Below, piece by piece: positions 11,426 through 41,740 of a stretch of DNA of 64,000 nt (positions within the stretch are counted from its first letter, which is position 1; each line of letters begins with the position of its first letter). Origin of the DNA: Candidatus Tagabacteria bacterium (GTDB lineage Bacteria; Patescibacteriota; Minisyncoccia; GCA-002779875); NCBI GenBank assembly GCA_963820595.1, contig CAWGAO010000007.1, positions 49,071 through 113,070 on the forward strand. Reading direction: 5' to 3'. The notes beneath the pieces were generated by a model, which did no database searches, was not told where the DNA came from, and saw only the letters and a program-made list of their open reading frames with translations. The translations under genes were made by a program, and so were the position numbers.

Positions 11426-12121
11426 TTAAAAACTAATCTTTATGGCTTTATCTAGGGTCTTGCGAAAATTTCTGGTTTTTAGCCATTCTTTTTCAATTAT
11501 TTTTCGCAACTGCGCATGCTCTGGATAGCCATTATCTTTTTCGAGACGAAGATCTTCAAATTCTAGATTAAGCAGCACGGTAAAAGCTTCTTTTATATCC
11601 CAGATTTGTTTTTTCGATAGCCCCTTGCCAGTACAATATTCCCAGTAGTAAGGAATAAACATGAAATGCATAAGTTCGTGCATAGCCGTTCCAGCGATAG
11701 AATATTTATTTTTAAACATCGGAGCGGCAAACCAGGGATTTTTTTGAGTGTTATAGCCGAACCTGCTGGCCGTAGATAGAACTCCTTTGACTGATTTATA
11801 AGGAAACGGGTTTTCGTGTATTTTTTCTAGCCGCCTTAAAACCTCTTTTTCTATTTTTGCCCAAACGGTATTACTATCTTTTATTAGGTTAATTAAAAAT
11901 CTTCTCTTTCCCGGGCTATAATAATCATTTATTTCATTTGAAATAAACTTTTTTCTTCCCGATTCAGAAAGCTTAAGTAATTTTTCATACCTCTCATTTT
12001 TATCCTGTGTATAAGAATGCAGTTTTCGCCGATAAGTATCCACGCCAATAAGATGATTTTGGATGTCTAGTTTTTTATCAATAACAAATTTAATTTTTTG
12101 CTTCATAGATTTATTTGCCAT
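11426..12121 (-). CDS. HExxH-motif protein (second putative metallopeptidase)
   Basis: 231-aa ORF with AMHELMHFMF. No other family is recognisable. Confidence 0.5.
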   Translation of the reverse strand: MANKSMKQKIKFVIDKKLDIQNHLIGVDTYRRKLHSYTQDKNERYEKLLKLSESGRKKFISNEINDYYSPGKRRFLINLIKDSNTVWAKIEKEVLRRLEKIHENPFPYKSVKGVLSTASRFGYNTQKNPWFAAPMFKNKYSIAGTAMHELMHFMFIPYYWEYCTGKGLSKKQIWDIKEAFTVLLNLEFEDLRLEKDNGYPEHAQLRKIIEKEWLKTRNFRKTLDKAIKISF

Positions 12122-12205
12122 GGTTTGTTTTTCCTCCTATTTGCTTTCAATGGGCAATTTTTAGTCTAAAAACAGAATAGCACATTGCGTGCTATCTGTC
12201 AAATG

Positions 12206-12245
12206 TCCGCCCACTAGGAATCGAACCTAGAACCTTCTCTCCCGC
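12206..12245 (-). other. orphan tRNA 3' fragment (T-arm plus acceptor 3' strand)
   Basis: The minus strand reads ...GGGAGAGAAGGTT-CTAGG-TTCGATT-CCTAG-TGGGCGG-A. No matching 5' half is adjacent. Confidence 0.6.
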
Positions 12246-12300
12246 AAAATAAGGAACGTCAGTGACTATATTTTGCGTGGATCCCGTTGTGCGCCCCTGC

Positions 12301-12375
12301 TCCGCCCATCAGGAATCGAACCTGAAACCTTCTCCTTAAAAGGGAGCTGTCCGCCAACTGGCGGACTATGGGCTT
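12301..12375 (-). tRNA. tRNA-Lys(UUU)-like gene with a mismatched acceptor 5' end
   Basis: Hand-folded: AAGCCCA TA GTCC-GCCAGTTGGC-GGAC A GCTCC-CTTTTAA-GGAGA AGGTT TCAGG-TTCGATT-CCTGA TGGGCGG A. Only 5 of 7 acceptor pairs form. Confidence 0.55.
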
Positions 12376-12380
12376 AAATA

Positions 12381-12453
12381 TCCGCCTGGAAGGACTCGAA
12401 CCTTCAACTTTCTCCTTAAAAGGGAGCTACTCTACCAATTGAGTTACAGGCGG
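12381..12453 (-). tRNA. tRNA-Lys (anticodon UUU)
   Basis: Hand-folded cloverleaf: CCGCCTG TA ACTC-AATTGGTA-GAGT A GCTCC-CTTTTAA-GGAGA AAGTT GAAGG-TTCGAGT-CCTTC CAGGCGG A. Acceptor pairing is 7 of 7. Confidence 0.85.
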
Positions 12454-12707
12454 TTAATTGATATTATGTTTTTAATAAATTCTCTGCCTCTGAAACTTTT
12501 CAACTCTTTTTCCCTTCTCAGCGCGTTGTGCTTATCATTTAATTTTTCTTTATACACGACAATCCATGGTCCTGCATTTTTCCTTGTAAAATGTGCTATA
12601 TTTTGTCGAAAGTTATTATGCTCTGCGCTTCTCCTTTCTAAATTATTTGTCGAACCGATATAGATTTTACCACTACTCTGACTTTTTAGGACATAAACAT
12701 AGTACAT
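12444..12707 (-). CDS. small GIY-YIG nuclease family protein
   Basis: YYVYVLKS...GKIYIGSTNNLERRSAEHN matches the GIY-X10-YIG, R and E core. Its stop codon lies inside tRNA-Lys positions 8-10. Confidence 0.8.
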   Translation of the reverse strand: MYYVYVLKSQSSGKIYIGSTNNLERRSAEHNNFRQNIAHFTRKNAGPWIVVYKEKLNDKHNALRREKELKSFRGREFIKNIISINRL

Positions 12708-12711
12708 ATTT

Positions 12712-12748
12712 ATCGGGAACTGTCCGCCAGCTGGCGGACTATGGGCGG
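12712..12748 (-). other. orphan tRNA 5' fragment (acceptor 5' strand through the anticodon stem)
   Basis: CCGCCCATAGTCCGCCAGCTGGCGGACAGTTCCC matches the 5' part of the 12301-12375 tRNA at 30/34. Its CCGCCCA is perfectly complementary to the TGGGCGG 3' strands at 12302 and 12207. Confidence 0.6.
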
Positions 12749-12767
12749 TTATAAAATGAGCGCTAAA

Positions 12768-13274
12768 CTAGCGCTTCTTTATTGTAACGAATAATGCGAC
12801 CAATGGCAAGATTAGCCACCAGAAAAAGGCTGTTGGTGTCGTGAAAAAAATTTGAACCAGTGGCGAAAGCGTGAAAATTCCTTTTGTAGGCAAAAGTCTA
12901 AAAACAAGACTTATTAAAAGTCCTGTTTCGAGGAAACTTAACAAAAATACCTGCCACCACACTCTTGTTCCCGAAATATTATCGTGGCGCAGGAGCCGAT
13001 TGAAAATAAAAGCCAAAAGAAGAATAAGTATCGCGAATGACGCGCCGCGAATTAAAAAAGCGTCAAGTGGCGGGCGGCTTTTGGTGAGATAATCGAGATA
13101 AGAAAGATTTTCGAATATAAGTCCCGAAACATAAAGCGAAATCAATGCGGCAATAAGCTTGGTTTTTCCCGTCGACAGGCCGTAAAAAAATCCCGCGGCA
13201 ATAAAAAAGAAAACAACAACTACCTCCCAAGTGGGATGATTTATTATTTTTGAGATAATTTCGAGATTTGCCAA
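12768..13274 (-). CDS. integral membrane protein (start uncertain; TTG at 13274 proposed)
   Basis: Five predicted TM helices. The track's extension to 13388 (MRFAHKGCAYSAPAHCEIEH...) is a read-through of the repeat element. Confidence 0.55.
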   Translation of the reverse strand: MANLEIISKIINHPTWEVVVVFFFIAAGFFYGLSTGKTKLIAALISLYVSGLIFENLSYLDYLTKSRPPLDAFLIRGASFAILILLLAFIFNRLLRHDNISGTRVWWQVFLLSFLETGLLISLVFRLLPTKGIFTLSPLVQIFFTTPTAFFWWLILPLVALFVTIKKR

Positions 13275-13525
13275 AATTATATGAACACTAGCGAATAATA
13301 ATTTTGAGCACCCCGCCCTTTTGGCGCCGTGTTCAATTTCGCAATGCGCGGGCGCCGAATAGGCGCATCCTTTATGCGCGAAGCGCATTGCTGTAATTTA
13401 ATCATCTGATTTAATTTATTCATAATATTTTATATATCTCGCGTCCAAAAGGGCGGGGTTAAGATTCTGTAAATCTACAACCACGATTTGTCGCTAATAA
13501 TATTCCAAATCGCGGGCAAATTCCT
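13275..13525. repeat. nested-hairpin intercistronic element, long form (copy B1)
   Basis: TTGAGCA-CCCCGCCCTTTTGG (13311-13324) ... CCAAAAGGGCGGGG (13445-13458). A second hairpin follows: CACGATTTG/CAAATCGCG, then GGCAAATTCC. The loop holds the sub-module GCGGGCGCCGAATAGGCGCATCC. Confidence 0.85.
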
Positions 13526-40523: not shown

Positions 40524-41740
40524 TTAAGATAATTTAATAATTTTCTTTAACGACAGTGCGAAATATTCGGCTTCGGCTTCGGTGTTATAAAAATAAACAG
40601 AGGCGCGGACCGAATCTTTGATTCCGCGGCTTATTGTACCATGAATGAACGCAATGCCGTCCCGAACGAACCATTATATGATAAGTTTTATCGAGCAGAA
40701 GAGAAATTTCATGAGAAAACATTTGCGGATGGTAGAAATTAATAATACCGCTCCGCTCTTCGGGATTTTCCGGGCCGATGATTTTCAGTTGCGGGAAATT
40801 CTTTACGCCATCGGTGATAATTCGATTCAGTTTTACTTCTTGCGATTTTATATTCTCAAACCCAATATTTTTGACGATATTTCACGGCCTCTCCCAAACC
40901 AATGATTCCCGCGAAATCAATGAGGCCGGCTTCAAAGCGTTCCGGCCCGTTCAGAAATTTATGATTTTCATAAGTTGAATCTTCCACTGTTCCCCCGCCG
41001 ACAATAAACGGACGTAATTTTTCCATCAGGTTTTTTTTGACATAAAGCACGCCCGTGCCTGTCGGTCCGAGTATTTTGTGTCCGGAAAACGCCAAAAAAT
41101 CGCAATCCAAATCATGAACGTCGATTTTCTGATGTCCTGCCGCTTGCGCCGCATCAACCAAAACCGCAGAACCGTTCTGATGAGCCGATTCTACGATTTC
41201 TTTTATCGGATTGGTGACGCCGTCGAGATTCGAAGTAAAAACAACGGAAATTAATTTTACTTTTGGAGAAAGTTTCTTTTTTAATTCATCTAATGTCGAA
41301 AGTATTGTCGGATTTTGATTTTATGATGCCTAGCTTGATTCCTTTTTCTTCTCCAAAATCTGCCACGGAATAAGATTCGAATTGTGCTCTTTATCGGAAA
41401 TTAAAACCTCATCGCCTTTTTCCAGCGCAAAACTTCTGGCGATCAAGTTGATGCCCTCCGTCGTATTGCGCGTGAAAATGATTTCTTCCGGTTTGGCGTT
41501 TATGAAATCGGCGACAATTTTTCTGGCTTCGGCTATTTTCCGGTTAACCATTTCCCCCATCGTGTGGTTGCTTCTTCCGCCGCAGGCCGGATATTCGCGG
41601 TAATAGTTGTCCATCGCCTCGATGACCGGCTCCGGTTTTAGCGTCATACAGGCATTATCGAAATAAACCGGTCCGCCAGCTGGCGGAGTAAATATCGGAA
41701 AATCCTTTCTGATTTTATCAACGTCAAAAATTTTACTCAT
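40524..41740 (-). pseudogene. class V aminotransferase / cysteine desulfurase (SufS/NifS-like) broken by at least 3 frameshifts
   Basis: N-terminal fragment FDNACMTLKPEPVIEAM...FTRNTTEGINL; middle fragment FLAFSGHKILGPTGTGVLYV. The C-terminus is read in two further frames (...MVRSGRHCVHSW / TISRGIKDSVRASVYFYNTEAEAE). Confidence 0.8.

Follow-up and report, generated by a model that had tools for sequence, protein, structure and literature searches.

Free-standing GIY-YIG endonucleases that target tRNA genes are known from T-even phages, and open reading frames (ORFs) that duplicate the end of their host gene are known from mitochondria. Here we describe a tRNA-Lys locus that, by analogy, would work like both. 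It lies in a 64,000-nucleotide (nt) stretch of DNA from a Candidatus Tagabacteria bacterium (contig CAWGAO010000007.1, positions 49,071 to 113,070; the whole stretch is called the window below). In it, an ORF for a GIY-YIG nuclease of 87 amino acids (aa) ends inside an intact tRNA-Lys(UUU) gene and is accompanied by damaged tRNA-Lys copies, two of which carry the same GC hairpin. We consider it probable that this is a tRNA-Lys gene occupied by a free-standing, homing-type GIY-YIG element of tRNA genes. New relative to the known systems are the setting of the same logic in bacterial chromosomes, a far smaller ORF (about 85 aa) that is fused to an essential tRNA gene, a lineage-specific preference for tRNA isotypes, and a conserved hairpin marking dead tRNA copies.

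SegB of phages T4 and T6 is a free-standing GIY-YIG homing endonuclease encoded in a tRNA gene cluster (PMC2330249, PMC13096335). Its recognition site holds a conserved TpsiC-arm motif of tRNA genes and the enzyme homes (PMC2330249), and its nuclease activity drives a recA-like-dependent tandem amplification of segments containing tRNA and truncated segB (PMC13096335). The protein has a C-terminal region past the nuclease domain, and a C-terminally truncated variant was non-toxic when overexpressed (PMC13096335). The present family resembles SegB in having a GIY-YIG gene between or beside tRNA genes, and a tandem repeat structure of similar kind is found in L004, L044, L046, L047, L060 and L270 (L-numbers denote loci from other genomes or contigs used in the comparison). 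However, the protein encoded here is a bare catalytic domain of the UPF0213/Slx1-like branch, whereas SegB is about 220 aa long. Its relatives are chromosomal in Patescibacteria and other bacteria, whereas SegB belongs to phages. SegB has no isotype preference, in contrast to the lineage-specific preference of the present family for Lys, Asn, Ser and other isotypes, and in the parts of the two SegB reports that were consulted we found neither hairpin-marked pseudo-tRNAs nor a stop codon within a tRNA, both of which characterize the present family.

In fungal mitochondria, mobile endonuclease ORFs bring along a replacement for one end of the gene that they enter, and the native end is left as a duplicate without function (PMC3630166). 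Examples are Allomyces atp6 and Glomus atp6, atp9, cox2 and nad3; inserted in an essential gene, such an ORF restores function with the end that it carries, and it can be in phase or fused with the host gene (PMC3630166). The locus studied here shares with them an ORF within a host gene, a completing copy of the gene end and a displaced duplicate. It differs in that the host gene is a tRNA gene rather than a protein gene, that the setting is a bacterial chromosome, that the duplicated end is usually the 5' one, and that the displaced copy bears a conserved GC hairpin.

Inserts encoding GIY-YIG proteins that are neither group I nor group II introns have also been described in the rRNA genes of bacteria of the candidate phyla radiation (PMC11270868). 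These resemble our locus in gene setting, as GIY-YIG genes within structural-RNA genes of Patescibacteria; they target rRNA rather than tRNA, and tRNA goes unmentioned in that report (PMC11270868). By sequence and fold, the best matches of the present protein are UPF0213/COG2827 (BH0048, EF2693), which has the same size and single-domain build, and the nuclease domain of Slx1. Structures of UPF0213 proteins have been solved since 2005, and Slx1 has an extra zinc-finger domain and needs Slx4. Within the searchable literature (open-access text), we found no description of tRNA-fused small GIY-YIG genes or of hairpin-marked tRNA fragments. A widespread family of tiny tRNA-fused nuclease genes has thus apparently gone undescribed, and it may be a class of mobile element that has escaped notice. 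Patescibacteria, in which the family is concentrated, are already known for numerous inserts in their structural-RNA genes. A function may be suggested in this way for some UPF0213 proteins, and the family could be used to test how a nuclease lacking a DNA-binding domain gets to a particular gene.

The tRNA-Lys locus and its nuclease

The anatomy of the locus was read along the minus strand from 12810 to 12160. A tRNA-Lys 5' fragment (F5'), the GIY-YIG ORF, an intact tRNA-Lys (K1), a pseudo-tRNA-Lys (K2), a spacer, a decayed tRNA-Lys 3' part (F3') and a terminator-like hairpin follow each other in this order (Table 1). The repeats are far beyond chance and span 543 bp in total; therefore, all the elements observed in an initial annotation of this DNA are real. 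Its layout of two orphan tRNA fragments, a GIY-YIG ORF and two tRNA-Lys-like genes was borne out, with every position right to within a few bases.

F5' reads CCGCCCA-TA-GTCCGCCAGCTGGCGGAC-A-GTTCC, comprising the acceptor strand CCGCCCA, U8-A9 and the anticodon-stem 5' strand GTTCC, and an 18-nt perfect palindrome takes the position of the D-arm. As the initial annotation had recognized, F5' repeats the 5' part of K2 (a 32-nt direct repeat, 94% identical; repeat family D2), and inspection agrees with it that CCGCCCA pairs 7 of 7 with TGGGCGG. Eight bases separate F5' from the ORF, whose stop codon TAA, correctly placed within the next tRNA from the outset, coincides with K1 positions 8-10. K1 was rightly described as intact: its minimum-free-energy fold is the cloverleaf. 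K2 begins five bases after K1. Its acceptor 5' strand opens with AA rather than CC, and A1 and A2 are unpaired against G72 and G71, the defect for which the initial annotation had singled it out. The anticodon arm and T arm of K2 are intact and its D-arm is swapped for the hairpin; ARAGORN at its default setting did not call K2, even after repair of AA to CC. F3' consists of GTTCC, a 9-nt 'anticodon loop', GGGAG, an intact T-arm (CTAGG/CCTAG) and the acceptor strand TGGGCGG-A. It ends where the orphan 3' fragment had been placed but reaches further in the 5' direction than noted, to about 12257. Between K2 and F3', the T-stem shows compensatory differences (TCAGG/CCTGA vs CTAGG/CCTAG), and the pattern of T-arm plus acceptor occurs in three copies in the window, with none expected in shuffles.

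The palindrome GTCCGCCAG(C/T)TGGCGGAC of F5' and K2 is expected by chance 0.04 times. It had been taken at first for a shared palindromic D-arm. The palindrome was recovered at both positions; its identity as a D-arm was not, and it is instead a conserved hairpin of dead tRNA copies, as described below.

Table 1. Features of the tRNA-Lys locus, with positions in the window
Feature	Positions	Strand	Evidence and remarks
F5', tRNA-Lys 5' fragment	12716-12748	minus	CCGCCCATAGTCCGCCAGCTGGCGGACAGTTCC; direct repeat of the K2 5' part
Hallmark hairpin, copy 1	12722-12739	minus	GTCCGCCAGCTGGCGGAC; 7-bp stem, 4-nt loop
GIY-YIG nuclease ORF, 87 aa	12444-12707	minus	Pfam PF01541, E=2e-16
K1, intact tRNA-Lys(UUU)	12381-12453	minus	ARAGORN; Rfam tRNA, 68.8 bits
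K2, pseudo-tRNA-Lys	12301-12375	minus	Rfam, 38.2 bits against a gathering score of 29 bits
Hallmark hairpin, copy 2	12349-12366	minus	GTCCGCCAGTTGGCGGAC; repeat family I1
43-nt spacer with imperfect hairpin	12258-12300	minus	CGCAAAATA...TATTTTGCG; sequence and fold
F3', decayed tRNA-Lys 3' part	12206-12257	minus	Repeat family D1
Intrinsic-terminator-like hairpin and T-run, closing the unit	12166-12196	minus	ATAGCACGCAATGTGCTAT; kept in L002
Promoter-like site, TTGCCA, 17 nt, TACAAT	12781-12809	minus	Consensus scan, 10/12 matches; a candidate of no functional weight

F5' through the terminator is likely read as one transcript. The promoter-like site upstream of F5' is, by its sequence, a possible promoter of the tRNA/ORF unit; together with a small hairpin, it sits within the 3' end of the upstream membrane-protein gene.

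The nuclease passes the curated threshold of the GIY-YIG domain (60.4 bits against a cut-off of 22.6, with the match spanning residues 1-71 of 87), and Y5, Y16, G18, R26, H30 and E66, which include the catalytic residues of the superfamily, are invariant in alignments of 15-32 relatives. Its AlphaFold model (pLDDT 86; elements E-E-H-E-H-H) shows the three-stranded sheet flanked by helices. A profile search against structures returned UPF0213 (1zg2, E=2e-6, and 1ywl), followed by I-TevI and Slx1 (E=1e-4), and in a Foldseek comparison of the model, with UPF0213 and Slx1 at ranks 1-12, the closest structures were 1zg2 and Slx1. On sequence profiles and the predicted fold, the protein groups with UPF0213 (1zg2, 1ywl) and the Slx1 nuclease domain, nearer than to I-TevI. 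Unlike a classical homing endonuclease, it is a single-domain protein, with no joined DNA-binding domain that reads a long target. Homing-endonuclease families of PHROG, and TIGR01453, match residues 1-33 alone (E 1e-4 to 3e-5), far below the curated cut-off; membership in the SegB protein family was ruled out, as no full-length similarity to phage seg-type endonucleases was found. An exact look-up of the protein matched no record. A profile search returned 1,470 clusters (50% identity) at E<=1e-10 and 11,740 at E<=1e-3, and the best 150 clusters are nearly all about 80-125 aa long.

Pairwise ratios of nonsynonymous to synonymous substitution (dN/dS) among the window and L001-L003 range from 0.07 to 0.28, with synonymous differences of 0.45-0.66 in every pair but the window and L001 (0.20), indicating from the sequences that the ORF is under purifying selection. 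With this low dN/dS and its invariant catalytic residues, the protein looks active.

Linkage of nuclease gene, tRNA and hairpin across genomes

Relatives were sought by a genome scan with a 15-sequence alignment. The main sample comprised 80 loci from species-representative genomes, encoding relatives at 43-58% identity; they are mostly from Patescibacteria, and others are labelled Ignavibacteria, Nitrospirota, Verrucomicrobiota and further groups. A same-strand tRNA abuts the ORF in 65 of the 80 loci. Its start lies at -45 to +75 nt from the ORF stop in 57 of them, and in the eight further loci a tRNA ends no more than 130 nt upstream of the ORF. The isotype of the abutting tRNA is Lys(UUU or CUU) or Asn(GUU) in 61 of 65 cases. 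Among the 57 loci with a downstream tRNA the ORF extends into the tRNA in 35, with recurrent overlaps of 9, 20 and 37 nt; in the loci that we read, the borrowed stop codon is formed by tRNA positions 8-10, by positions about 19-21 or by a TAA of the anticodon loop. In 36 of 60 loci, the sequence upstream of the ORF contains an exact repeat of the first 12 nt of the local tRNA; among 1468 control pairs, 7 do so. The fragments were copied from the local tRNA.

The hallmark of the family is a hairpin of the form TCCGCC-N4-GGCGGA. A hairpin CCGCC-N3-5-GGCGG was found near the ORF, outside the tRNAs called by ARAGORN, in 64 of the 80 loci, and in 63 of these it is located no more than 150 nt upstream; the remainder of these loci contains it at a background rate of 0.045 per kb. 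Where loci were read, it is confined to tRNA-derived dead copies, with both flanks matching the local tRNA. Within the tRNA it is found at different coordinates: in the window it takes up the whole D-arm, and at other loci it is in the D-loop, at positions 24-31, in the variable region or in the T-loop. The loop is variable, and changes in the stem are covarying (TCCGTC/GACGGA, TCCGGC/GCCGGA and TCCACC/GGTGGA, among others). Loop sequences counted by strand gave 8 AGCC against 2 GGCT and 6 AACT against 4 AGTT, a bias that is weak given shared ancestry. In a tree of the nucleases, clades correspond to tRNA isotype plus hairpin coordinate, and isotype and hairpin site are lineage-specific. This match is reminiscent of homing endonuclease lineages, each of which keeps its own insertion site.

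Two mirror layouts are seen, [5' fragment + hairpin]-ORF-[tRNA] and [tRNA]-ORF-[3' fragment + hairpin]. Extra dead tRNA copies and tandem ORFs occur among related loci, and in L060 and L016 the ORF is followed by arrays of hairpin units of 84 nt. The closest four homologues, on short contigs, are 79-88% identical to the window protein, and the three whose contigs were compared (L001-L003) show the same order of membrane-protein gene, F5', ORF and tRNA-Lys. F5' (about 35 nt) differs pairwise by 0-4 nt among the window and L001-L003 and by 1-3 nt against the window, and the six core base pairs of the stem are unchanged, at 20-66% difference in synonymous sites of the ORF. This conservation of F5' and of the stem, together with the low dN/dS of the ORF, means that the ORF and the hairpin-bearing fragment are both constrained. 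The K2 orthologue of L002 is followed by the same 3' flank as F3'; it has a further 42-nt hairpin insert in its T-loop, to which the spacer hairpin of the window is homologous, though diverged, and it falls below the Rfam tRNA threshold.

More distant relatives follow the same plan. In L004, encoding a 59%-identical homologue, the ORF stop is again within tRNA-Lys; a duplicate of the last 50 nt of the ORF, a tRNA 5' part and a palindrome lie upstream of the ORF, and a second tRNA copy bearing two palindromic inserts lies downstream. Distant small GIY-YIG proteins (P0017, P0018 and P0057) are found in the same arrangement with tRNA-Arg or tRNA-Ser and different GC hairpins. L270 (770-1575) contains two tandem units, each [tRNA-Arg positions 1-21 + CCTGCCTGCCGGCAGGCAGG + GAGCG]-ORF, followed by an intact tRNA-Arg(ACG). 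In L267 (980-1550), tRNA-Ser(GGA)-ORF is flanked on either side by hairpin-bearing tRNA-Ser fragments, and in L271 (1114-1520) the ORF ATG directly follows tRNA-Ser(CGA).

Several simple readings of the hairpin were dropped. An intrinsic terminator does not fit, as a U-run arises in the Lys(UUU) context alone; a Shine-Dalgarno element or operator does not, as the distance to the ATG ranges from 11 to about 60 nt and the hairpin is downstream of the ORF in some lineages. The ORF is flanked by full palindromes, not by half-sites, which disposes of an excision footprint of terminal inverted repeats, and a palindromic P-nucleotide scar was discarded because the sequence is constant and unrelated to its flanks. 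In viral contigs the hairpin 16-mer gave 55 matches, none with a tRNA or GIY-YIG gene nearby; most are in GC-rich phage coding sequence or in longer terminator-like palindromes. They were judged chance or unrelated matches, so there is no sign of a phage-borne element. A metagenome scan used the 15-mer CCCATARTCCGCCAG, which is too short and gives chance matches, and the full palindrome was present in 0 of 120 among the matches listed.

A few further observations concern the palindrome and the loci that carry it. A third near-copy in the window (41671-41688, GTCCGCCAGCTGGCGGAG) apparently falls within coding sequence of the minus strand, with no tRNA gene found in its vicinity; it is probably a chance occurrence. 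One half of the palindrome, GCTGGCGG (window 12722-12739), is 7/8 identical to the Escherichia coli Chi site GCTGGTGG, and a variant in L058 (CCACCAGCTGGTGG, about 110-130 nt upstream of the ORF) contains exact Chi on both strands; the resemblance may be a coincidence. Upstream of a tRNA-Cys gene, L004 (2570-2715) has a duplicate of the 5' flank and first 15 nt of that gene, then a different GC hairpin (CCCGCCTCG...CGAGGCGGG) and further GC-rich sequence, with no adjoining nuclease gene. The contigs of L001, L003, L022, L027, L056, L064, L081 and L082 end 20-400 nt past the ORF, within or just beyond the tRNA. Repeated tRNA pieces evidently break short-read assemblies, and hence the family is probably under-represented in binned genomes. 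In practice, such loci not only break assemblies: gene callers extend ORFs into the tRNAs, and tRNA pseudogenes pass covariance-model thresholds, as K2 does at 38 bits.

Empty sites and exchange of the tRNA

Syntenic loci were found through orthologues of the flanking membrane protein (171 aa). The DnaK-DnaJ-membrane protein-tRNA-Lys locus is filled in the window and in L001-L003, and empty in L085, L086 and L088-L091. The ORF is present or absent, then, at one conserved chromosomal site among relatives, and two of the empty loci carry scars. L088, L089 and L090 have a clean tRNA-Lys and no ORF. In L085, a K1-type tRNA is followed by a decayed remnant ending CCTAGTGGGCGGA. In L086, an uninterrupted tRNA with a normal D-arm (CCGCCCA-TA-GCTCAGTTGGTAGAGC-...-TGGGCGG-A, 71.4 bits) is preceded by CCCGCCCATAGTCCGC, which is F5' cut within the hairpin. 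An uninterrupted tRNA pairing CCGCCCA with TGGGCGG, for which the initial annotation had proposed looking in relatives, therefore exists at the syntenic site. Its broader view, that insertion and duplication in a tRNA-Lys gene left this footprint and that the GIY-YIG gene is linked with it, likewise stands beside these ORF-less loci. On a tree built from the flanking protein, filled loci are interspersed with empty ones, a pattern suggesting that the element was acquired long ago, with losses since.

The ORF is not always joined to the same tRNA. The closest relative, L001, has a resident-type tRNA (CCGCCCATAGCTC...) fused to its ORF, whereas a K1-type tRNA (CCGCC(T/C)GTAACTC...) takes that place in the window, L002 and L003; the ORF-joined tRNA has therefore been exchanged by recombination. 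The F5'-ORF-K1 anatomy has the features of a mobile ORF with a replacement gene end of the mitochondrial type, and a sign of a foreign completing piece, namely K1 differing from the resident type in acceptor and D-arm, is seen at this locus only.

Some features of the tRNAs at this site were noted in passing. All tRNA-Lys genes at the locus have C1 paired to G72 (CCGCC...GGCGG-A) and no encoded CCA. In the clade with a present or past element, the D-arm of the ORF-fused tRNA is unusual (A10-U25 in the K1 type; D-loop AATCAGGCA in L001), and the canonical GCTCAGTTGGTAGAGC D-arm is found both at the outgroup locus and at the scarred one. These sequences hint that the working tRNA copy differs from the resident type at the hairpin site. 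The empty-site tRNA-Lys of L085 (3035-3160) is bracketed by a 16-nt inverted repeat, CCCGCACCAAAATTTAT ... ATAAATTTGGTGCGGG, that could form a long processing stem around the tRNA. After the clean tRNA-Lys of L090 (3150-3280; L091 is alike), a GC-rich stretch of about 130 nt (GTCCGAGGCGGAGCC...GCGAGTACTTAGTCCGCGCAG...) stands in a spacer that is otherwise AT-rich.

Possible origins of the arrangement

How would a homing-type element produce this arrangement? We propose that the nuclease breaks the DNA of a tRNA gene, and that recombinational repair against an occupied locus then copies the ORF and the adjacent tRNA sequence into the broken gene. The outcome would be one complete tRNA plus displaced pieces of the resident tRNA, and further breaks would yield tandem partial duplications. 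Homing combined with segmental duplication has been demonstrated by experiment for SegB, and the mitochondrial mobile ORFs leave a duplicated gene end of the same kind. K2 would be a nearly full-length resident-type copy killed by the same hairpin. The hairpin itself would represent a disrupted, cleavage-immune form of the target site of each lineage, one that resides in non-essential copies and that gene conversion passes from one linked copy to another. It would also interrupt the direct repeat of fragment and tRNA, which, if uninterrupted, would permit precise loss of the ORF, and it may in addition be a structural handle for a nuclease without a DNA-binding domain. The position of the stop codon may have a role of its own. 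RNase P processing and the surveillance of non-stop mRNA are established. An RNase P cut at K1 position 1 would remove the stop codon, and full-length translation would be possible from unprocessed transcripts only; because of RNase P processing, the message would become a non-stop mRNA, which would keep expression of the nuclease low.

Several points weigh against such an element. The target and its cleavage by the nuclease are drawn by analogy. The intact tRNA beside the ORF holds every tRNA-internal site and so should be cut too; for comparison, SegB does cut tRNA genes in its own phage genome (PMC13096335). A bare catalytic domain lacks the DNA-binding domain that gives SegB or I-TevI its specificity. 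The count of stem mismatches (6 G.T against 5 A.C) fails to separate an RNA from a DNA role of the hairpin. From the sequences, the element in this clade looks old and vertically inherited, and the near-saturated synonymous sites between the window and L002, together with the kept synteny, fit a resident or domesticated gene equally well. No near-identical elements were found in unrelated genomic contexts as proof of recent movement. Finally, the proposed route gives no account of how one constant 16-nt palindrome would enter, at defined coordinates, sequence that matches the local tRNA on both sides.

A first alternative, which we regard as unlikely though worth weighing, is a domesticated module, in which the nuclease and the hairpin-bearing pieces are of use to the host or to the tRNA operon (such as in tRNA-gene maintenance or copy correction, or in RNA processing), are inherited vertically and leave the duplications as by-products. 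A dN/dS of 0.07-0.28 across divergences at which synonymous sites near saturation, the same position after DnaK-DnaJ-membrane protein in four genomes, the conservation of F5' and the hairpin stem far above that of synonymous sites, and the very large size of the family (11,740 clusters at 50% identity, E<=1e-3) would all be consistent with it. It is, however, at odds with close relatives that are without the element and bear scars of its loss, with the same hairpin in scattered phyla, and with the tandem ORFs and dead-copy arrays of L044, L046, L047, L060 and L270, which resemble selfish amplification. To our knowledge, UPF0213 proteins have no known host function or assigned role.

A rather doubtful variant makes the hairpin an active partner and not a scar. 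In one version, the linked nuclease would spread a palindromic mini-insert of 16 nt into tRNA-gene copies in trans, the smallest possible 'intron'. In the other, a structural handle, either a DNA cruciform or an RNA hairpin flanked by tRNA-matching sequence, would give the Slx1-like 87-aa domain its target specificity. Either version, if true, would mean that a nuclease lacking a DNA-binding domain can locate a gene in a new way.

We think it improbable that the hairpin and the adjoining tRNA-derived sequence are the functional partner of the nuclease, in the sense of a recruiting or guiding structure or an inhibitor like a type III antitoxin. Such a partnership would be in keeping with the missing DNA-binding domain of the enzyme, with the presence of the structure-specific nuclease Slx1 among its nearest solved relatives, with a stem that is conserved and covarying, with flanks that match the local tRNA, and with the arrays of hairpin-bearing units that adjoin the ORF in L060 and L016. 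By contrast, the hairpin sequence differs in more distant family members, the stem mismatches carry no RNA-specific signal, and the position relative to the ORF varies, on either side. We also know of no GIY-YIG enzyme that is guided by nucleic acid or acts on RNA, which counts against it further.

Very improbable is that K2, or F5' and F3' joined, is a functional tRNA of unusual build (with a long D-hairpin, split or intron-containing). In its favor, K2 scores 38.2 bits, above the Rfam tRNA threshold; K2 and F3' each have a 3' strand that pairs 7/7 with F5'; a helix of GTTCC and GGGAG is possible with a single G.U pair; and compensatory differences between the two T-stems imply that selection once acted on both K2 and F3'. 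Nevertheless, ARAGORN at default rejects K2 whether its acceptor is repaired or not, the K2 orthologue of L002 is broken by its 42-nt T-loop insert, and hairpin copies elsewhere are truncated or without the acceptor 5' strand and below the Rfam threshold. There is no group I intron, the array already includes an ordinary tRNA-Lys(UUU), and the 9-nt loop of F3' is without a Lys anticodon context. Ordinary tandem duplication and decay of a tRNA with a GIY-YIG gene adjacent by coincidence is scarcely credible: tRNA genes do duplicate in tandem and the window alone could not exclude it, but it is contradicted by the juxtaposition of ORF and tRNA in 65 of 80 independent loci, the hairpin in 64 of 80 and the ORF running into the tRNA in 35 of the 57 loci with a downstream tRNA.

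Readings of the locus as a member of other known classes were tried as well. A permissive Rfam search of 11500-13500 returned two tRNA matches and nothing else, with no RF00028 (group I intron) match up to E=10. An integrase island does not agree with repeats that span 543 bp rather than kilobases, and no recombinase was found. The ORFs within 9-16 kb encode DnaK, DnaJ, the 171-aa membrane protein, an HExxH protein and a large Cys-rich product; no integrase domain was found in the four proteins scanned, the large Cys-rich ORF being left out. A split, permuted or trans-spliced tRNA of archaeal type was rejected, as the palindrome is self-complementary within each piece and not between pieces; the joined F5' and F3' were not called as tRNA-Lys by ARAGORN, and an intact tRNA-Lys is within the array. 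In the comparison with type III toxin-antitoxin (ToxIN-like) systems, no repeat array was found in the window, and a PADLOC search gave no significant match. Of the proposals in the initial annotation, the insertion footprint and its link to the GIY-YIG gene are thus retained, and an intron-like origin, an integrative element and a spliced or trans-assembled tRNA are set aside.

The same Rfam library detected group I introns (RF00028, 51-86 bits) downstream of the GIY-YIG ORF in L068 (2348-2562), L083 (2563-2839) and L084 (2300-2513), so one within 11500-13500 would have shown. As read, the introns of L068 and L084 interrupt the anticodon loop of tRNA-Asn beside the GIY-YIG element, and thus tRNA-Asn genes of Patescibacteria bear two unrelated kinds of insert at once.

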